The position numbers and the translations under genes are program-made. 64,000 bases of DNA from a virus (Duplodnaviria; Heunggongvirae; Uroviricota; Caudoviricetes): IMG/VR virus record IMGVR_UViG_3300045988_149737; one strand, 5' to 3'. This document shows, piece by piece, positions 4,203 through 38,713 of the stretch. Numbering within the stretch: position 1 is the first letter of the stretch; every line of letters begins with the position of its first letter. The notes below the pieces were generated by a model. That model was not told the DNA's origin. It saw nothing but the letters and a program-made list of their open reading frames with translations, and ran no database searches.

Positions 4203-4847
4203 ATGGATCTAAAACGCACGCGCTGGGTTCGTCGTCTTGAGGACGGCTCCTACACTATCGAATCAAATTCCAACCTGAATAAGCAGAAGTTACTTTGTGA
4301 TATCTGCGGTATAGCGGCGAAGTGCCCGATCTACGAAACCAGAATTAAACTTGATAAGGCTGGTGTGAACTTTCATTTGAATAGTTGTATCAGGTACGTT
4401 CCATTGCTCGCATTTCGTAAACCGATCATCGGATTGGATGCGCCCTACTTCAACACACTCCGTTCAGGAGTAACGTGGCGAGATCGTTTATCACCAGACA
4501 AACTGATTTGCCTTGTATCCGCAGATACAGGAAAAATCATTCGTTTTGGGAAAGTAGACAAGGTTTACTCAGGCCCAGTTGACGAGATGTTGCGGAAACA
4601 CAGCCGGTTTAATCACCTCTGCATGGGTGGTGAGAAAATCGAGAAGGTTGAAGAAGTGATCCGCAAATCCTACGGACACTTCCTGACCAAAGATAGCCTG
4701 CTCACTGCAATCTACATCAGACATGTAAAACGTGAGTTCGACCTTGAATACCATAGCGAAGAAGAACTGAACCTTGTCGATCCACGTCCTAAAGCTGGCG
4801 TCATAAGCATAAATGCAGCGCGTAAAAAGCCCACTGACGCGCTGTAA
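4203..4847 (+). CDS. hypothetical protein (214 aa) adjacent to the origin
   Basis: ORF only; no recognisable motif. Confidence 0.5.
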   Translation: MDLKRTRWVRRLEDGSYTIESNSNLNKQKLLCDICGIAAKCPIYETRIKLDKAGVNFHLNSCIRYVPLLAFRKPIIGLDAPYFNTLRSGVTWRDRLSPDKLICLVSADTGKIIRFGKVDKVYSGPVDEMLRKHSRFNHLCMGGEKIEKVEEVIRKSYGHFLTKDSLLTAIYIRHVKREFDLEYHSEEELNLVDPRPKAGVISINAARKKPTDAL

Positions 4848-5101
4848 CCCTCCAGATCGTATATTGGCGTAGATAGAATCTACGCCCCCTCAAAATAGCT
4901 CTCATAGCGTTCTACAGTGATCCTGTCTTATTTTTAGTCATACAGACAAGCAAAGTTGCGCCACGATAAATAGGTATATACTTACTTATAAATTTTGTAT
5001 ATTAAGGCGCTCGTTTCATTCCTAACATACCGTTATGCATAGTTGTTTACCTCCTCATTGCTCTTAGAATTTGTATCAAAATAACCACAAAGGAAAAACA
5101 C

Positions 5102-6187
5102 ATGACTTTGCCATACGGCGTCATTTCTGACTGCCACTACCACAAATGGGATGCGTTCTCCACGACGAACGCTGAGGGGCTTAACTCCAGACTTGAAATA
5201 CAGTTGGAAGCAACGAAAGAAGCAGCCATCGCCATGAAGAAGGCCGGTTGTAAGTACATGTTGGTTGCCGGTGATACATTTCACGTCCGAGGAACTGTGT
5301 CCCCTTCTGTTTTGCATTACGTAACTGAAACGTACAAGTGGATTATCAACGAGCTTGATCTGACAGTAGTAATGCTGGCCGGTAATCACGATCTTGAAAC
5401 CAACGATTCAGTATATAGCGCCAACGCAGCAGCATCGCTGAGTTCTATCGGCGTGGTAATCGTATGTGGCAAGCGCCCACACTCAATAAAAATTGGCGAT
5501 GTGACTGTCCACCTGATTAGCTGGCGTAACAATCATGCGGAGCTTATCAGCGATCTGAAAGCATTACGTAAGAGCGTAGAAGGTGATAATCATGACGTTG
5601 TTATCCATACATCCATTAACAAAGCCATTCCAACAATGCCTGACGTCGGTATCGATGCGCAGGAGTTAAAGGATATCGGCTTTCGTCTCGTGCTTAGTGG
5701 GCATTACCACAACCACAAAGAGGTCATTCCTGGAGTTATCAGTGTCGGTGCACTGACTCATCAAAATTGGGGAGATGTTGGATCTCTGGCTGGCTACATG
5801 ATCGTAAACCCGGACGGCAGTTTCAGTCACTACGAAACCAGTGCGCCTAAATTCATTAACCTGGAAGATGATGTTGCTGATGACCAAATTCGCGGCAACT
5901 ACGTGCGTTTCCGCGCCGTAATTGAGAACGATGAAGAAGGCATTAAGTACCAGAACATCCTCAAAACAATGGGTGCAAAAGGTGTCGTGTGCAACTTCAT
6001 CCGTAAGTCATCAATGATGGAAGGTACAGCCAGCACAACTGAAACCAGCAAAATCGATAGCCTGGGAGAGTCGGTATCTGCTTATTGCAAGATTGTCCAC
6101 GATACTGACGGCGGATTTGATCTGAGCAAATTGGATATTTTGTGTCAGGAAATCCTCACCGAAGCGGAGAGTTCGGAGGCTGTGTGA
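5102..6187 (+). CDS. sbcD: SbcD/Mre11-like nuclease (calcineurin-like phosphoesterase)
   Basis: Phosphoesterase motifs GDTFH, AGNHD and GHYHNH; immediately upstream of an SbcC-like ATPase. Confidence 0.8.
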   Translation: MTLPYGVISDCHYHKWDAFSTTNAEGLNSRLEIQLEATKEAAIAMKKAGCKYMLVAGDTFHVRGTVSPSVLHYVTETYKWIINELDLTVVMLAGNHDLETNDSVYSANAAASLSSIGVVIVCGKRPHSIKIGDVTVHLISWRNNHAELISDLKALRKSVEGDNHDVVIHTSINKAIPTMPDVGIDAQELKDIGFRLVLSGHYHNHKEVIPGVISVGALTHQNWGDVGSLAGYMIVNPDGSFSHYETSAPKFINLEDDVADDQIRGNYVRFRAVIENDEEGIKYQNILKTMGAKGVVCNFIRKSSMMEGTASTTETSKIDSLGESVSAYCKIVHDTDGGFDLSKLDILCQEILTEAESSEAV

Positions 6188-9718: not shown

Positions 9719-12034
9719 ATGATAAGCATCGTAAAACGTAACGGCCAAACAGAGCCGTTATCCGAAGATAAATACAACCGCGTCGTAATGTATGGCGTAG
9801 AAGACATTCGTGGCGTAAGCGCATCCGCTGTAGCAATGGGAGCTGCGGCCAGCATTTTTGATGGGATTACCACCAGCCAGTTGCATGAGGCTTTGGTTAA
9901 ATCTGCCGCTGATTTGATCTCACCAGAAGCACCAAATTACTCACAGGTGGCTGCCCGCCTGAACATTTTTAAAATTCGCAAAGATGCCTTCGGTCGTTAC
10001 GACTATCCGAACTTCTACCAACACATTGTCAAGAACGTTAACAAGGGCGTTTATGACAAGGATTTGCTGACACATTATTCATTTGAAGAGATCGAAGAAC
10101 TCGGCAATTACATTAAGCCTAAACGTGACGATCTTTTTGGCTATGCAGCTACGGTGCAATTGCAAAGCAAATACCTCGTTCAAAACCGCGTTACTGGTGA
10201 GATTCATGAGGGGCCGCAACATATCTATATGCTGGTAGGCATGTGTCTGTTCCAGAATTGGGAAGACGACTGCGCTGGCAAAACACGTATGGAGATGGTC
10301 AAAGGTTTCTATGACGTTACAAGTACGTTCAAACTGTCTCTGCCCACACCAATCATGGCCGGCGTCCGTACTCCAACCCGTCAGTTCTCCAGTTGTGTGC
10401 TGATTGAGTCTGGCGATAGTCTGAAAGGGATTAGTGCAGCTTCAGCCGCAATTATCGACTACGTTTCACGTCGTGCTGGAATTGGTATTGGTTTTGGCCG
10501 TATCCGTGCGCTGGGCAGCGAGATCCGCAATGGTGAAGCCACACATACCGGAGTTACTCCATTCCTGAAGCATTTCCAGACGGCTGTTAAATCTTGTTCG
10601 CAAGGTGGTGTTCGTGGTGGCGCAGCAACAGCGTTTTACCCGATCTGGCATCTTGAAGTTGAAAGTCTGCTGGTGGTGAAAAATAACCGTGGTATTGATG
10701 AAAACCGCGTTCGCCATCTTGATTACGGCGTCATGAGTAACCGTCTGATGTACCGTCGACTCGTCAGAAGCGAGAACATCACTCTGTTCAGCCCGCATGA
10801 TGTGCCTGATATGTACGAAGCCTTCTTCACAGACCAGGATCTGTTTGAAAAGCTGTACCATGAATACGAAGCCGATGATTCAATTCGCAAGAAGTCAGTA
10901 CCTGCCATTGAGCTGTTCTCATCTCTGATGCAGGAACGAGCGTCCACGGGCCGAATTTATATTGCGAACGTCGATCATATTAACGAGCATGGCGCTTTCA
11001 TTCCTGCTCTTGCACCTGTTCGCCAGTCAAACCTGTGCATGGAGATCACTCTACCCACTCGTCCACTGGCATTTACCGACGACCCGAACGGTGAGATCGC
11101 GCTTTGCACTTTATCCGCTTTTAACCTCGGAGCCATCCGTTCACTGGAGTCTCTTAAAGAGGTGGCGTTCTATGCCGTTGCTGCACTGGATTCGTTACTG
11201 GATTATCAAGACTATCCGATGGAGGCAGCCGAAGTGCCAGCCAAAGCTCGCCGTAGCCTGGGAATCGGTGTAACCAACTTTGCTTATTACCTGGCAAAGA
11301 ATGGCGTTCGTTATTCTGATACCGCTGGCAATAAACTGGTGCATGAAACGTTCGAAGCTATCCAGTATTACCTTCTTGATGCCAGCTGCCGACTTGCTGA
11401 AGCAAAAGGTGAGTGTGACTGGTTTGAGCAGACCAAGTACGCAATTGGTCAGTTGCCGATCGACCATTATCGTTCTTCATTAGACGAAAGTGGCGAAACC
11501 AACTTTGAGTTAAAGATGCCGTGGGAAGAACTGCGTGAACGTATTGCAAAATACGGTCTTCGCAACTCCACACTGACGGCACAAATGCCATGCGAGACTT
11601 CCAGCCAGATCACTAATTCCACCAACGGCATCGAGCCGCCTCGTGGCCCGGTGTCGGTGAAATCTTCTAAGGACGGCATCGTTAAGATGGTCGTGCCTGA
11701 GTTTGAAAAACTGAAGGAACAGTATGAATACCTGTGGGATATGCCGGACAACCGCGGCTATCTGACAAAGGTGGCGATCATCCAGAAGTTCTTTGACCAG
11801 GCTATTTCAGCCAATACCAACTATGACCCTTCTCGCTTTGAAGGCGATAAAGTCCCAATGATGACGCTACTGTCAGATTTGCTTCTCGCCTACAAGATGG
11901 GAGTTAAAACGCTTTACTACCACAACACCAGAGATGGTGCAGGAAAGCGTGATGACGACGAAGCGCAGAATCCACTTACGCAAGCTGTAGCCGTCGAGCC
12001 AGAAGATGAGTGCGACGGAGCCTGCAAAATCTGA
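9719..12034 (+). CDS. nrdA: Ribonucleoside-diphosphate reductase large subunit (class I)
   Basis: 771 aa; N-terminal ATP-cone-like region and long conserved stretches of class Ia alpha subunit; followed by an nrdB-like gene. Confidence 0.9.
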   Translation: MISIVKRNGQTEPLSEDKYNRVVMYGVEDIRGVSASAVAMGAAASIFDGITTSQLHEALVKSAADLISPEAPNYSQVAARLNIFKIRKDAFGRYDYPNFYQHIVKNVNKGVYDKDLLTHYSFEEIEELGNYIKPKRDDLFGYAATVQLQSKYLVQNRVTGEIHEGPQHIYMLVGMCLFQNWEDDCAGKTRMEMVKGFYDVTSTFKLSLPTPIMAGVRTPTRQFSSCVLIESGDSLKGISAASAAIIDYVSRRAGIGIGFGRIRALGSEIRNGEATHTGVTPFLKHFQTAVKSCSQGGVRGGAATAFYPIWHLEVESLLVVKNNRGIDENRVRHLDYGVMSNRLMYRRLVRSENITLFSPHDVPDMYEAFFTDQDLFEKLYHEYEADDSIRKKSVPAIELFSSLMQERASTGRIYIANVDHINEHGAFIPALAPVRQSNLCMEITLPTRPLAFTDDPNGEIALCTLSAFNLGAIRSLESLKEVAFYAVAALDSLLDYQDYPMEAAEVPAKARRSLGIGVTNFAYYLAKNGVRYSDTAGNKLVHETFEAIQYYLLDASCRLAEAKGECDWFEQTKYAIGQLPIDHYRSSLDESGETNFELKMPWEELRERIAKYGLRNSTLTAQMPCETSSQITNSTNGIEPPRGPVSVKSSKDGIVKMVVPEFEKLKEQYEYLWDMPDNRGYLTKVAIIQKFFDQAISANTNYDPSRFEGDKVPMMTLLSDLLLAYKMGVKTLYYHNTRDGAGKRDDDEAQNPLTQAVAVEPEDECDGACKI

Positions 12035-12134
12035 CATATGGTGGGGTATATCCCCACCTTATCTTTGATTTGTAAGCCTTGTTTAAACACATAAGATAAC
12101 AACTTGTTTAAACACATCAAAAAAGGAAAAACAC

Positions 12135-13277
12135 ATGTCATATTCAACGTTCCGTTTGGGTGCTAATGATGCAACCAAAGAGCCTATGTTCCTCGGACAA
12201 TCTGTCAACGTGGCACGTTACGATCAGCAAAAATACCGTGATTTTGAAAAGTTGATTGAACGTCAATTGTCTTTCTTCTGGCGGCCGGAAGAAGTTGATA
12301 TTTCGAGCGATCGTATCGACTTCAACACGAAGCTGCGAGACCACGAACGTCACATTTTTCTGAGCAATCTCCGTTATCAAACGTTACTCGATTCAGTTCA
12401 GGGACGTAGCCCAAATGCAACGCTGCTGCCGCTTATCTCTATTCCTGAACTGGAAACGTGGGTTGAAACATGGTCTTTCTCTGAGACTATCCATAGCCGC
12501 AGCTACACCCACATTATTCGTGGCATGGTGGACGATCCGAGCATTGTTTTTGACGGTATTGTTACGGATGAAGAAATCATCAACCGAGCGATCAGTATCT
12601 CTGCTGAATATGACAGGCTTTATGGGATGACCTGCGAGCGCCAGTCGTTAGGTGAGAAAGAGTTTGAACGTCTGTACGTAAATGAATATGGCTGGGAGCC
12701 ATACCCTTTGCATCGTCAGCTTTTCCGCACGTTGGTGTCCATTAATGCGCTTGAGGCGATCCGTTTCTATGTAAGTTTTGCATGTACGTTTGCCTTTGGC
12801 GAACGGAAGTTGCTTGAGGGTAACACCAAAATTATGCGCTTTATTGCCCGTGATGAAGCTCTGCATTGCGAAGGAACTGAACGCATGATCCGCTTCATGC
12901 GTACCGGTCGCGAAGGTTTATTGTGGAAAGAGATTGCTGCTGATGAAGAAAACGTCATTTACGACACCATGAAATCAGTCGCCGAACAAGAAATGAACTG
13001 GGCAGACTATCTCTTCAAAGACGGTTCGATGATTGGTTTAAACGCGGATATTCTGAAGACCTATGTAAAATACCGAACCAATCTGGCTATGAATCGTCTT
13101 GGCCTGAAGGCTTTATTTCCAGAAGTTACCACAGATCCGCTGGTCTGGATGAACAAGTGGTTGTTAACCGACACACTGCAAATTGCACCACAAGAGGCAG
13201 AGCAAAGCACATATCTGGTAGGTCAGATCGATTCTACCGTGGATAAGGCTTCTCTAAGCCAGTTTGCAGACCTGTAA
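12135..13277 (+). CDS. nrdB: Ribonucleoside-diphosphate reductase small subunit (class I)
   Basis: 380 aa, di-iron/tyrosyl radical family features; directly downstream of nrdA. Confidence 0.85.
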
Positions 13278-13354
13278 ACCGATACAAAGCATTATGTGGC
13301 CTGGCAACGCTGGGTCACAATGGATCACAAGAATTAAGAAGGAACAAAACTAGC

Positions 13355-14224
13355 ATGAACTTTACCAAACTGACTGACCACCTGAAACTTGCCACCGATC
13401 GACTCATTGGATTTAAGCCAGAACCATATGAGTTGCATGAAGGCCATGGTGTAGCCACTGAAAGTATTTACAAGATGGTCGATCAGTTTCATGAACTCTT
13501 CCAGCATCCGAGACGCGTTATGCCGACACCAGAGCTGCTTCGTCTCCGTGCAAGCCTGATTCATGAAGAAGCTGTAGTGGAAGGGATTCCAGCCGCAATG
13601 AATGGGGATATTGAGCAACTGCTGGATGCAATGGCCGACTTTTTATACGTTGGTGTTGGTACGATGGTCTCCATCAAAGGTGGTATTTCTACCGGCATGA
13701 CCTATTACACGCAGGAACAGAGCATTGATCGCTTTATGCAGACAATTTTTGTGCCCGGTAACACTGTTTTCGATGATATGGCAATGCCATTTCAGGAAGC
13801 TCGTGAGGCGTCATGTATGCTCGAAGAGCTGGCAGATAAACTTGAGAAGAAGGCTGTTAAGGATTCTGAGCTGATTCAGGAACTGCGCCGTGTAATGAAC
13901 AAAATCTATGTGGCGTGCATGATGACTTATCGACTGGCTGATTTCCTCGGTATCAATGTCGTCGAGCTGGTTGGCGAAATTCATCGGTCTAACATGACAA
14001 AATTATGGCCTGCTGATGTTGAGGAACGTCGCCAGGCTGTGGCCAACTGCAAATACGACTCTTCAGATCTGGGATTCCGCCATGCTGATGGCACCGATAA
14101 GATGATCGGTTTTCGAATTTCCGATGGAAAGATTCTGAAGTCTCCAACCTATAGTGATGTCGATTTATCCTCCTTTGTTGAGCAAGCTAAAGCCTCAGCA
14201 ATGTACGGAATGATCAAAAAATAA
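13355..14224 (+). CDS. hypothetical protein; possible all-alpha NTP pyrophosphohydrolase (MazG/dimeric-dUTPase-like)
   Basis: Real ORF in the nucleotide-metabolism cluster; EGHG...ELLRLRASLIHEEAVVEG and EQLLDAMADFLYV resemble MazG/HisE-type motifs (weak, by eye). Confidence 0.45.
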   Translation: MNFTKLTDHLKLATDRLIGFKPEPYELHEGHGVATESIYKMVDQFHELFQHPRRVMPTPELLRLRASLIHEEAVVEGIPAAMNGDIEQLLDAMADFLYVGVGTMVSIKGGISTGMTYYTQEQSIDRFMQTIFVPGNTVFDDMAMPFQEAREASCMLEELADKLEKKAVKDSELIQELRRVMNKIYVACMMTYRLADFLGINVVELVGEIHRSNMTKLWPADVEERRQAVANCKYDSSDLGFRHADGTDKMIGFRISDGKILKSPTYSDVDLSSFVEQAKASAMYGMIKK

Positions 14225-30749: not shown

Positions 30750-31516
30750 GCAATAGTACGATAAAGAGGCCCCATGCTCTTGATGGGGCCTGTAGCAACT
30801 AGCGTTATGGACGCTGGTTTACGTACTCAATGATCGCTTTGATAATCGCGAACATCGGCGGCACGATTTTGAACAGTAAGTTAACCATAACAGGCCTCAC
30901 TTAGTTTTATCGCGCCTAGCTGCAAATACCTTTGGGCTTGCCTTTGCAGTTGCAATATCTGTAGTCGCCAGATACTTACGGCACGATTTCGAGTTAAGGT
31001 AAGGTTTTAGAGTCACCAAAAACCTGGACTTAAATCTTCTTTGAGAACAACGATGTTTAGTAAATGGTCATTATTACCTGGTATGACCACTCAACGCTTC
31101 TTGATGAATCCAGTACATTCGGTTAATCTTAATTCAGTCGCCAGATACTTATGGCTCAGGAACAGAGACGCAAACTCTGTTTCCTTTTAAAAAGCCCAGC
31201 CTAGTCAACTGGGCTTTTTAACGTCTGTTTTTTAACCCAACACACCCTCAATACTGCAACATCAGTGTCTTGCAACCTAAGATAGTGTCTGTAGGTTCTT
31301 CATGCAAGTGCATAACTCAGTGGATAACTCATGAAGGAAAAAGTAGCTTCCGCGCAATTTAGACCAGACAAGGTCTTCGCAAAAGTCAACGGAAAGAGAA
31401 AAATTTGTTAAAAATAACGTTTGTTGGAATTGTATATATTTATGCCTTTCAATAGTTAGCATCTTATTAACATCTTTTTTAAGAGATAGAGTTCAAAAAT
31501 ATATAGCTTCAACATA

Positions 31517-31536
31517 TACTGTATGTATATACAGTG
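31517..31536. promoter_or_regulatory. LexA (SOS) box
   Basis: tactgtatgtatatacagtg matches CTGT-N8-ACAG, 17 nt upstream of the umuD'-like ATG. Confidence 0.7.
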
Positions 31537-31552
31537 TTAAGAGGCGAGTATT

Positions 31553-31942
31553 ATGGGCTTCCCTTCTCCTGCGGCGGATTATGCTGAGAGCCGTATTTCT
31601 CTTGATCAGCAGATAATTAGACATCCTTCAGCGACCTACTTCATGAGGGCAGCTGATAGTCATCATCGTGAGGGAATATTACAGGGTGCATTGCTGGTGG
31701 TCGATTCCTCACTTACCCCGGTTGATGGTTCTCTGCTTGTATGCGCTCTGGATGGGGAATATCGCGTAAAAAGATACCGGAAGTATCCACGTCAGCATCT
31801 GGAGGATTTAAGAACCGGTAAGAAGGAAGCATTGCCAAAGGATGACGATGGATGCACGGGCAGCAATGCCGTGTTTGGTGTGATCACTCACATTATCAAC
31901 GACGCAAGAAGTGGCGAGTTTGATGATTGTCCCGTGATGTAG
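31553..31942 (+). CDS. umuD: UmuD'-like S24 peptidase-family protein lacking the N-terminal pro-segment
   Basis: Begins MGFPSPAADY, matching the UmuD region immediately after its Cys24-Gly25 autocleavage site; conserved Ser (AADSH) and Lys (RVKRYRK) at catalytic positions; in-frame stop 15 nt upstream excludes a longer N-terminus. Confidence 0.7.
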   Translation: MGFPSPAADYAESRISLDQQIIRHPSATYFMRAADSHHREGILQGALLVVDSSLTPVDGSLLVCALDGEYRVKRYRKYPRQHLEDLRTGKKEALPKDDDGCTGSNAVFGVITHIINDARSGEFDDCPVM

Positions 31943-31951
31943 GAGAACTGA

Positions 31952-31979
31952 TTAGGCGGTGCATTGCACCGCCTTTTTA
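31952..31979. terminator. Bidirectional terminator shared by umuD'-like and apbC
   Basis: aggcggtgcattgcaccgcct hairpin followed by ttttt. Confidence 0.55.
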
Positions 31980-33080
31980 TCACACTGCGCGGAATGCGAT
32001 TTCGCCAGGTATTACTTCACCTTGCCAATACATTTGGGCAGCAACGCGATCTGCGAGGTCACGATAAATAGCCGTAAATTCGCTATCTGGACGACTAATA
32101 ACGGTTGGTGTTCCGTTATCCAGATCTTCACGAAGTGAGATATGAAGTGGCATTTGGCCTAACAACAGCGTGTTGTATTTCTCGGCCAGTTTCTGTGCGC
32201 CACCAGTGCCAAAAATTGGCTCGTGATGACCGCAGTTACTGCAAATATGCACACTCATGTTTTCGACGATACCCAGTACCGGCACTTCGACTTTTTCGAA
32301 CATCACAATGCCTTTCTTCGCATCGATCAGCGCGATGTCTTGCGGCGTAGTTACCACAACCGCACCAGTTACAGGAATGTTCTGCGCCAGCGTCAACTGA
32401 ATATCACCAGTGCCCGGCGGCATATCGAGAACGAGATAGTCCAGATCAGGCCACAGTGTTTCTTGCAACATTTGCATCAACGCCTTGCTCGCCATAGGGC
32501 CACGCCACACCATCGCGTTGTCGTCAGTGACCAGATAACCAATTGAATTGGTTGCCAGGCCATGAGACATAATAGGTGCCATGTGAGTACCGTCTGGTGA
32601 GGTTGGACGTTGGTTTTCCGCGCCCAGCATGGTTGGAATTGATGGCCCGTAGATATCGGCATCAAGAATGCCAACTTTCGCACCTTCAGCGGCTAACGCC
32701 AGCGCAAGGTTTACCGCCGTGGAAGATTTACCTACCCCACCCTTGCCTGAGCTGACGGCGATAATGTTCTTAACGCCATTAATGCCTGGTTGGTTTTTAA
32801 CGCGCTTCAGCGTGGCAATGTTGTGAGACAGCTTCCAGTCGATAGCCTTTGCACCAGTGATACGGAGCAGATCACCACTACATTGCTCTTTCAGGTCTTC
32901 AAAAGGCTTATTCCACACGAAAGGCATGATTAGTTCGACATGCAGTGTGTCATCCATCAACGCAACATGGTGTAACGCTTTAAGCGTAGTCAGGTTGTGT
33001 TTCAGGGTTGGGTGCTGAAAATTAGCCAGCGTACCGGCTACCATTGCTCTCAGGGCATCCGGCGATTTGGACTCGCTCAT
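31980..33080 (-). CDS. apbC: Fe-S cluster carrier ATPase ApbC/Mrp
   Basis: Full-length match by eye to enterobacterial ApbC/Mrp (deviant Walker A SGKGGVGKS, CxxC motif ICSNCGH). Confidence 0.9.
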   Translation of the reverse strand: MSESKSPDALRAMVAGTLANFQHPTLKHNLTTLKALHHVALMDDTLHVELIMPFVWNKPFEDLKEQCSGDLLRITGAKAIDWKLSHNIATLKRVKNQPGINGVKNIIAVSSGKGGVGKSSTAVNLALALAAEGAKVGILDADIYGPSIPTMLGAENQRPTSPDGTHMAPIMSHGLATNSIGYLVTDDNAMVWRGPMASKALMQMLQETLWPDLDYLVLDMPPGTGDIQLTLAQNIPVTGAVVVTTPQDIALIDAKKGIVMFEKVEVPVLGIVENMSVHICSNCGHHEPIFGTGGAQKLAEKYNTLLLGQMPLHISLREDLDNGTPTVISRPDSEFTAIYRDLADRVAAQMYWQGEVIPGEIAFRAV

Positions 33081-33237
33081 CCCGTCTCCTTTATTTTAAT
33101 TTGCGCAATTGTCGCCTTGTAGTGTACTCCAGCTACGACATTTAATCATTTATGAGAAATGCTGTTATCACATGGCAGACATAAGGCCATTTTGTTACTA
33201 TCAAGCCCCTTTTCACTACAAAGAAGTAATGCCTACT

Positions 33238-35271
33238 ATGACCCAAGTCGCGAAGAAAATTCTGGTGACGTGCGCGCTGCCGTACGCTAACGGCTCAATC
33301 CACCTCGGCCATATGCTGGAGCACATCCAGGCTGATGTCTGGGTTCGTTACCAGCGAATGCGCGGCCACGAGGTTAATTTCATCTGTGCCGACGATGCCC
33401 ACGGTACGCCGATCATGCTGAAAGCACAGCAGCTTGGTATCACACCGGAGCAGATGATTGGCGAAATGAGTCAGGAACACCAGACTGATTTCGCAGGCTT
33501 TAACATCAGCTATGACAACTATCACTCGACGCACAGCGAAGAGAACCGTCAGTTGTCTGAGCTTATCTATACTCGCCTGAAAGAGAACGGTTTTATTAAA
33601 AACCGCACTATCTCTCAGTTGTACGACCCGGAAAAAGGCATGTTCCTGCCGGATCGTTTTGTAAAAGGCACCTGCCCGAAATGTAAAGCGCCAGATCAAT
33701 ACGGCGATAACTGTGAAGTCTGCGGCGCAACATATAGCCCGACTGAATTGATCGAGCCGAAATCGGTGGTTTCTGGCGCTACCCCGGTAATGCGTGATTC
33801 CGAACACTTCTTCTTTGATCTGCCTTCTTTCAGCGAAATGCTGCAGGCATGGACCCGCAGCGGCGCGTTGCAGGAGCAGGTGGCGAACAAAATGCAGGAA
33901 TGGTTTGAATCCGGCCTGCAACAGTGGGATATCTCCCGCGATGCGCCTTACTTCGGTTTTGAAATTCCGAACGCGCCGGGCAAATATTTCTACGTCTGGC
34001 TGGACGCGCCGATTGGCTACATGGGTTCCTTCAAGAATCTGTGCGACAAGCGCGGCGATACCACCAGCTTCGATGAATACTGGAAGAAAGACTCCACCGC
34101 CGAGCTGTACCACTTCATCGGTAAAGATATTGTTTACTTCCACAGCCTGTTCTGGCCTGCCATGCTGGAAGGCAGCAACTTCCGCAAGCCGACCAACCTG
34201 TTTGTTCATGGCTATGTGACGGTGAACGGCGCGAAGATGTCCAAGTCTCGCGGCACGTTCATTAAAGCCAGCACCTGGCTGAATCATTTTGACGCTGATA
34301 GCTTGCGCTACTACTACACCGCGAAACTCTCTTCGCGCATCGATGATATCGACCTGAACCTGGAAGATTTCGTTCAGCGCGTGAATGCCGATATCGTCAA
34401 CAAAGTGGTTAACCTGGCCTCCCGTAATGCAGGCTTTATCAACAAGCGTTTTGACGGCGTGCTGGCAAGCGAACTGGCTGACCCTGAACTGTACAAAACC
34501 TTTACCGATGCCGCTGAAGTGATTGGCGAAGCATGGGAAAGCCGCGAATTTGGTAAAGCTATCCGTGAAATCATGGCATTGGCTGACCTGGCTAACCGCT
34601 ATGTCGATGAACAGGCTCCGTGGGTGGTGGCGAAGCAGGAAGGTCGCGATGCCGATCTGCAAGCGATTTGCTCTATGGGCATTAACCTGTTCCGCGTGCT
34701 GATGACGTACCTGAAACCGGTACTGCCGAAACTGACTGAACGTGCGGAAGCGTTCCTGAATACGGAACTGACCTGGGATGGTATCCAGCAACCGCTGCTG
34801 GCACATAAAGTGAATCCGTTCAAAGCACTGTATAACCGCATCGACATGAAGCAGGTTGAAGCACTGGTGGAAGCATCCAAAGAAGAAGTGAAAGCCACCG
34901 CCGCGCCAGTTACTGGCCCGCTGGCTGATGATCCGATTCAGGAAACCATCACCTTTGACGACTTCGCCAAAGTTGACCTGCGTGTGGCACTGATTGAAAA
35001 CGCGGAGTTTGTTGAAGGCTCTGACAAACTGCTGCGTCTGACACTGGATCTCGGTGGTGAAAAGCGTAATGTCTTCTCCGGCATCCGTTCTGCTTATCCA
35101 GACCCACAGGCACTGATTGGTCGTCACACCATTATGGTGGCTAACCTGGCTCCGCGTAAAATGCGCTTCGGTATCTCCGAAGGCATGGTGATGGCTGCTG
35201 GCCCTGGCGGAAAAGACATCTTCCTGTTAAGCCCGGATGCCGGTGCTAAACCAGGCCACCAAGTTAAGTAA
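33238..35271 (+). CDS. metG: Methionine--tRNA ligase
   Basis: 677 aa from [26 protein letters not shown] (HIGH motif), KMSKS motif present, zinc-binding CPKC...CEVC; start moved from upstream ATG to canonical MTQ. Confidence 0.9.
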
Positions 35272-38401: not shown

Positions 38402-38713
38402 ATGAAAAGTTCATTGGTTCTTGGTCTGGACAAAGACCAGAAGAGAAAAGAGAAGCCTGCACTGGTTGCTCAACTAACTTTGCTGGACATCGTTGCCAAT
38501 GGAACATCTATTCGTCTGTTCCGTGAAACAGCGGTGTCTTTCGATAAAAACACCTTTACTCGTTATGTAATGAATGTTCGCCGCCAGCGTGGAAAAGGCT
38601 GGATGGCGTTTCAAAGAATGTGGCCGGAACATCAGCTCGAACTGGCCTTGATGGAAGTTAACCGCGTGGCCCAGCAAGAGATTCAGAGAGCATCAGTGAT
38701 GGCAATAGCCTGA
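38402..38713 (+). CDS. hypothetical small early protein (103 aa)
   Basis: ATG downstream of motif. Confidence 0.5.
   Translation: MKSSLVLGLDKDQKRKEKPALVAQLTLLDIVANGTSIRLFRETAVSFDKNTFTRYVMNVRRQRGKGWMAFQRMWPEHQLELALMEVNRVAQQEIQRASVMAIA

Follow-up and report, generated by a model that had tools for sequence, protein, structure and literature searches.

humD on an SSU5-like phage-plasmid of Escherichia coli: a UmuD′ homologue with an upstream LexA box and no umuC partner

HumD of phage P1 is reportedly a protein of UmuD′ size that lacks a umuC partner. It is said to form dimers, to bind UmuC and RecA filaments, and to restore mutagenesis in non-mutable strains, with a complementation that is reportedly weak at low copy number. 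These observations are said to come from the first characterisation of P1 humD, that of McLenigan et al. 1999 (J Bacteriol 181:7005). In the GenBank record of P1, humD (AAQ14181) carries the note "DNA repair; functionally complements E. coli UmuD′", and a LexA binding site, common to humD and the divergent gene lxr, is placed 20 nt 5′ of the gene. P1 has also been described as encoding an already activated short UmuD, named HumD (PMC7092418), and humD is listed as a LexA-regulated SOS gene of P1-like phage-plasmids (PMC9603915). In a CRISPRi screen, P1 humD was non-essential for lytic growth (PMC10695390).

The DNA analysed here is a stretch of 64 kb of viral sequence, called the window below. 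On its plus strand, an open reading frame at 31553–31942 (ATG at 31553, TAG at 31940–31942) encodes a protein of 129 amino acids, and this gene is humD, an orthologue of P1 humD. The NCBIfam equivalog model NF051876, "HumD family translesion DNA polymerase", covers positions 1–129 of 129 and scores 219.8 bits against a cutoff of 120 (E 8e-66). The UmuD model (NF007621 / PRK10276) gives 87 bits, below its cutoff of 110, and the LexA model TIGR00498 reaches 27.2 bits against a cutoff of 110.95 and matches the C-domain only. Pfam assigns Peptidase_S24, and the 129 residues hold no extra domain. In tblastn searches of phage genomes, the protein is 100% identical to CYRAN_98 of Escherichia phage Cyrano (pLF82) and 91.5% identical to P1 HumD; in relatives with 97% identity, PGAP names the gene "HumD family translesion DNA polymerase". 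The best sequence matches among solved structures are UmuD′ (1umu, E 7e-23; 1i4v) and UmuD (8gmt). An AlphaFold model based on a close-family alignment (102 sequences, 67–100% identity) had a mean pLDDT of 43 and was unusable, so a model based on a diverse alignment was used instead (mean pLDDT 74.7, core 83–88). With this model, Foldseek ranks UmuD′ first (1umu, 8gmt, 1ay9; target-normalised TM about 0.76) and places the C-domains of LexA and lambda CI well behind (E 5e-4 to 1e-2). An earlier note on this DNA had named an unrelated S24 peptidase or a repressor C-domain as what the protein might turn out to be, and both are contradicted by the HumD and LexA model scores and by a structure closest to UmuD′. 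Its central proposal was an SOS-controlled, pre-processed UmuD′ on a mobile element that borrows host UmuC. This agrees with what is published on P1 HumD, given the identity between the two proteins, the equivalog score above cutoff and the fold that best matches UmuD′. The gene family is, however, already known: the NCBI pipeline names it and the P1 protein has been characterised experimentally, so the earlier reading is a rediscovery. The residual novelty sits in a conserved C-terminal tail, which is unexplained, and in the benefit to phage-plasmids.

The N-terminus is the feature that sets the protein apart from UmuD. Direct reading of the window gives MGFPSPAADY, and alignment to K-12 UmuD confirms that this start falls at the Cys24-Gly25 site: M1 stands opposite Cys24 and G2 opposite Gly25, with Ser36 opposite Ser60 and Lys73 opposite Lys97. 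The codons of the last two residues are AGT at 31658–31660 and AAA at 31769–31771, both on the plus strand. The in-frame TAA that closes the frame on the same strand lies 15 nt 5′ of the ATG, as had been reported, at 31538–31540. Direct reading and three-frame translation show that stops shut all plausible 5′ extensions, and nothing resembling a UmuD-like N-terminal arm was found in the other two frames 5′ of humD, which argues against the longer, frameshifted gene that the earlier note had considered. A Shine-Dalgarno-like AGAGG on the plus strand (31540–31544) stands 8 nt 5′ of the ATG, and in homologous loci GAGG is kept at the equivalent spot. At the other end of the gene, an intrinsic-terminator-like element, with a 9-bp hairpin that has 7 G-C pairs and then TTTTT, occupies 31954–31979 between the stop codons of humD and apbC. 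It had been taken for the terminator of apbC. Its T-run is on the humD (plus) strand, and the homology to chromosomal apbC begins beyond it, at about 31984, so it is better assigned to humD.

Transcriptional control is indicated by the LexA operator (SOS box) TACTGTATGTATATACAGTG at 31517–31536, a site to which no strand is assigned. It ends 17 nt before the ATG, the distance already noted, and agrees with the consensus TACTGTATATATATACAGTA at 18 of 20 positions (2 mismatches). It is homologous to the annotated LexA site of P1 humD/lxr, and it is the sole site within 3 mismatches of the consensus in the 64 kb; none of 100 dinucleotide shuffles yields one. The loose core CTGT-N8-ACAG alone is not significant over this length (2 found vs 1.04 expected). 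Its second occurrence, CTGTTCCGTGAAACAG at 38516–38531, has a spacer that is not AT-rich and is probably a chance match. A consensus scan also detects a promoter-like site at 31492–31520 on the plus strand, with a -35 element TTCAAA (31492–31497), a 17-nt spacer and a -10 element TATACT (31515–31520) that overlaps the LexA box. This pair is not significant by the scan alone, but a similar layout occurs in diverse homologous loci, where a -35 TTGATC is followed by a -10 abutting the CTGT half-site of the box. Exact CTGT-N8-ACAG is found 18–21 nt 5′ of the ATG in all 85 of the 85 P1-like and SSU5-like humD loci. Among chromosomal homologues of Enterobacterales, about 20 of 45 have it, with the -35 TTGATC and the -10 beside the box conserved, and roughly half of the chromosomal homologues examined show none within 120 nt. 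Judged from the sequence, humD would be LexA-regulated, with 31517–31536 as the putative binding site of LexA. A promoter-like site on the minus strand also overlaps the box, and a divergent, LexA-controlled non-coding transcript starting from it is conceivable. Neither Cyrano nor the PGAP-annotated relative has a gene annotated in the roughly 800 bp 5′ of humD (about 30750–31552), and an Rfam scan of this stretch found nothing real, its sole match scoring 18.8 bits vs a gathering score of 50. A 61-aa open reading frame on the minus strand (31277–31462) was rejected as a divergent lxr-like gene, since it does not resemble P1 lxr and a 1-nt indel disrupts it in comparison with Cyrano.

The survey of homologues that the earlier note had suggested, for the same truncation and the same box, finds both well beyond the window. 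A word-indexed search returned 561 clusters (90% identity) at E <= 1e-5, and the start MGFPSPA is present in 108 of the best 120 of these; most of the longer entries among the best 120 owe their length to a start called further upstream, with a frame that runs through the operator. The species-level survey of genome contigs was seeded with MGFPSPA[AST]D, so the uniform Met start seen there is partly a selection effect, and the figure free of this seeding bias is the 108 of the best 120 clusters. For the box, the 85 P1-like and SSU5-like loci described above give the corresponding count.

The surroundings of humD identify the element that carries it. Over 24 kb around the gene, the window is 95–97% identical to the 108-kb phage-plasmids Cyrano (pLF82), CMS-2020a and PhiR41_1, and Salmonella phage SSU5 is more distant. 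The window belongs to an SSU5-like phage-plasmid of E. coli and not to a chromosome. The phage-plasmid Cyrano is described as SSU5-like and as making virions (PMC9928086). Together with its operator, humD forms a mobile module. The window and P1 are similar in their DNA from the LexA box to the humD stop codon, both flanks being unrelated. Behind humD, 30 of the IMG/VR loci have apbC and 50 have phd-doc, and their 5′ flanks are mixed. Of 5426 complete E. coli genomes, 767 have DNA that matches an 801-bp region with humD, mostly in plasmids and in P1-like and SSU5-like phage-plasmids; the exact SSU5-type configuration is present in 109 complete E. coli genomes. The neighbouring apbC is not chromosomal DNA beside the element; the SSU5-like phage-plasmid itself carries apbC-metG. 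At 31980–35271 the window holds apbC (minus strand, 366 aa) and metG (677 aa, ATG at 33238), both intact and divergent as on the E. coli chromosome. The pair shares about 89.5% identity with its counterpart on every E. coli chromosome and 95–99% with 215 plasmid records, and its chromosomal homology begins at about 31984, at the apbC stop. It is a host segment captured by the phage-plasmid. A second methionyl-tRNA synthetase and an Fe-S carrier are unusual cargo for a phage-plasmid, and a literature search for a link between SSU5 and metG or MetRS found nothing.

UmuD′ acts together with UmuC, and the earlier statement that humD has no umuC beside it holds for the window and for its relatives. 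With the UmuC of K-12 as query, tblastn gave no match in the 64-kb window or in the whole of a related complete plasmid, NZ_CP103696.1, nor in 80 IMG/VR loci (P1-like and SSU5-like) or any Enterobacterales HumD locus. No UmuC homologue was found within 4–5 kb of any HumD-clade locus. The query was taken from K-12 umuDC, as none had turned up beside the low-identity genome loci, and it matches only four distant loci, which have genuine umuDC-type operons. As for the host, 5423 of the 5426 complete E. coli genomes carry umuC, so a UmuC partner is essentially always available.

The preferred reading, which is considered probable, is that humD encodes a pre-processed UmuD′ homologue that would be LexA-repressed until the SOS response and would then pair with host UmuC into a Pol V-like polymerase. 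In an unstressed lysogen, host LexA, presumably bound to the operator that overlaps the -10 element, would keep humD off. DNA damage would lead to RecA-stimulated cleavage of LexA and thus to derepression of humD. The product starts exactly at the point of RecA-mediated self-cleavage of UmuD, and removal of the initiator Met would leave G-F-P-S-P as its N-terminus. HumD would therefore need no activation step, since it starts where UmuD would be cut. It would dimerise like UmuD′ and join chromosomal UmuC and RecA-ATP to give a Pol V-like translesion polymerase, and the slow checkpoint from UmuD to UmuD′, with the delay of RecA-dependent cleavage, would be bypassed. That HumD of the window can complement UmuD′ and bind UmuC and RecA is carried over from the literature on the P1 orthologue, and any benefit of the gene to the phage-plasmid is inferred. 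Counted against the Pol V model is a C-terminal tail that has no counterpart in UmuD′ and that the model does not explain.

Partners other than host UmuC are conceivable in view of what the element itself encodes. The related plasmid NZ_CP103696.1 (114 kb) carries, in its PGAP annotation, RepB, its own RecA, DnaE, a gp32-type SSB, a primase and a helicase, and further a ligase, NrdAB, tRNAs and siphovirus structural genes. Its humD copy is called "HumD family translesion DNA polymerase", and no Y-family polymerase is listed in that annotation. RecA and a full-length DnaE (Pol III alpha) lie at 4413–5486 and 10289–13807 of this plasmid, outside the window. RecA, DnaE and the gp32-type SSB of NZ_CP103696.1 are potential element-encoded partners of HumD. 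It is therefore worth weighing whether HumD is mainly a modulator of replication and the SOS response, one that binds RecA filaments, DinB or Pol III alpha/beta, or the DnaE or RecA of the element, and so slows or remodels replication after damage. UmuD and UmuD′ are reported to bind DinB and RecA (Godoy 2007, cited in PMC3401449) and to disrupt the complex of Pol III alpha and beta (Silva 2012). The replication genes of the related plasmid (those for RecA, DnaE, primase, helicase and SSB) and the tail, which a Pol V role leaves unexplained, would also suit a modulator. However, the only experimental data on a HumD orthologue concern UmuC-dependent mutagenesis, and a mainly modulatory role is regarded as unlikely. 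The two roles are not mutually exclusive.

The tail itself is the most distinctive part of the protein. Codons 120–129 (31910–31939, plus strand) encode SGEFDDCPVM, which in the family alignment extends past the end of UmuD. Throughout the HumD clade this extension of ten residues, R-x-G-E-F-D-D-C-P-V-M, is near-invariant, and it is still recognisable in relatives of 40–55% identity (EFDDTPF, EFDDIPVI, DEFDEIPCI). It was absent from all 61 arm-bearing UmuD-like representatives, which were drawn from the best 149 matches in 1.84 billion cluster representatives. Among the loci examined, it is confined to orphan genes without umuC. In the structural model the tail is predicted to be disordered, with pLDDT below 50 for residues 124–129. 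The C-terminal tip of SSB, D-F-D-D-D-I-P-F, docks about 20 genome-maintenance proteins. EFDDCPVM partly resembles this tip, a likeness limited by a Pro one position out of register and by a last residue that in most members is Met or Ile and not Phe. SSB is reported to recruit Pol V (PMC3401449), and a literature search linking the HumD tail to SSB found nothing. From the similarity of the two motifs, HumD could be imagined as a mimic of the SSB tip that tethers HumD2-UmuC to the pockets of SSB clients (chi, Pol II/IV, RecQ, PriA), or that competes with SSB for them, and in this way re-routes host replication and repair for the phage-plasmid. Such a role is speculative and rather improbable.

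The catalytic residues bear on another explanation, in which HumD would have kept its activity as an S24 Ser/Lys peptidase and, once the SOS response is induced, would cleave a second protein in trans, such as host UmuD, LexA or a phage repressor. UmuD cleavage can occur intermolecularly, and in both the window copy and P1 HumD, Ser36 and Lys73 align with Ser60 and Lys97 of UmuD. The earlier claim that the Ser/Lys dyad is kept is correct for the window copy and does not hold for the family. Among 103 HumD clusters the position of Ser60 is Ser in 59, Thr in 42 (about 40%) and Ala in 2, and the equivalent of Lys97 is kept in 101. The nucleophile is thus relaxed across the clusters, whereas the Lys is not. 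With Thr or Ala in 44 of 103 clusters, the dyad is probably dispensable for catalysis in HumD. The G-D-S-M motif of UmuD is also replaced in the family, by [GAS]-x-[ST]-H-[FYH]-R with a deletion of one residue, and it is degenerate in the window copy (A-D-S-H-H). The relaxed Ser and the altered motif would fit a protein without need for self-cleavage and argue against peptidase activity in trans, which is judged very unlikely. The Thr at the position of the catalytic Ser and the acidic C-terminal tail may be under-described details of the HumD family.

The suggestion that HumD is a functionless, decaying fragment of umuD or of a repressor C-domain could appeal to its shorter length relative to UmuD and to its status as an orphan without umuC, but it is effectively refuted by the conservation data: dN/dS between the humD genes of the window and P1 is 0.055 (dS 0.77), as expected under strong purifying selection, the M-G-F-P-S-P-A start recurs in the best clusters as counted above, the promoter, operator and Shine-Dalgarno sequence are conserved, the best matches are to UmuD′ and not to repressors, and the GenBank note on the P1 orthologue describes it as functional.

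Proteins of similar design are also seen outside the phage-plasmids. In a Chitinophagaceae MAG (locus L142, 5001–6595; also L139 and L141), a protein of 117 aa starts with MGFPSPAADY, has 3 open codons upstream and lacks the acidic tail, and a UmuC homologue follows directly 3′ of its gene. Judged from its sequence and gene order, it is apparently a UmuD′ that is truncated from the start and yet shares an operon with umuC, in an organism outside Enterobacterales. Plasmids of 34–60 kb (NZ_KX214670.1, NZ_MK618661.1 and NZ_MF415608.1) encode an "S24 family peptidase" with 47.9% identity to HumD over query residues 1–115, which may represent another pre-processed UmuD′-like lineage, here on non-phage plasmids.

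The main value of the analysis lies in annotating the gene correctly, as a HumD orthologue and a textbook case of a phage that supplies an SOS-induced, pre-activated Pol V subunit and uses host UmuC. P1-like and SSU5-like phage-plasmids also spread resistance genes (PMC9600943). Because the humD region is common in E. coli (the 767 of 5426 genomes given above) and is carried by such elements, HumD is a widespread factor that could let error-prone synthesis start sooner, and it is relevant to stress-induced mutagenesis.

In comparison with known systems, HumD of P1 and HumD of the window are alike in their 129 amino acids, their MGFPSPAADY start, the LexA box just upstream, the lack of a umuC partner and the C-terminal tail EFDDCPV[MI], and eleven conservative amino-acid changes separate them. 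Their settings differ more. The window element is an SSU5-like siphovirus phage-plasmid and P1 is a myovirus; the window has no divergent lxr gene, its humD is followed by apbC and not by phd-doc, and the spacing from box to ATG is 3 nt shorter than in P1. The HumD clade also includes orphans of N15 (gp26), phiKO2 and lambdoid/P22-like prophages (PHROG 811), which are 60–71% identical to the window protein and have an equal start and tail; many of them have a LexA box at 17–21 nt, and their phage backbones are other than that of the window. With UmuD and UmuD′ of E. coli (1umu, 1ay9, 8gmt), HumD has the S24 fold in common (TM about 0.76), with about 42% identity over residues 2–118. It begins at the equivalent of Gly25, with which UmuD′ begins, and the equivalents of Ser60 and Lys97 are present. 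Unlike E. coli UmuD, HumD has no N-terminal arm of 24 residues, no cleavage step and no umuC operon, its G-D-S-M motif is degenerate, and it carries the extra conserved acidic tail of 10 residues. The C-domains of LexA and lambda CI also have the S24 fold, but HumD lacks a DNA-binding domain and its similarity to them is much weaker than to UmuD′. MucA, ImpA, RumA and SamA, UmuD homologues of plasmids and ICEs, are, like HumD, SOS-related S24 proteins that are borne by mobile elements and serve a Y-family polymerase. They are less than 50% identical to HumD and, in contrast to it, have the full length, depend on RecA-mediated cleavage and always come with a polymerase gene of their own (mucB, impB, rumB), whereas HumD is encoded ready-made and alone.
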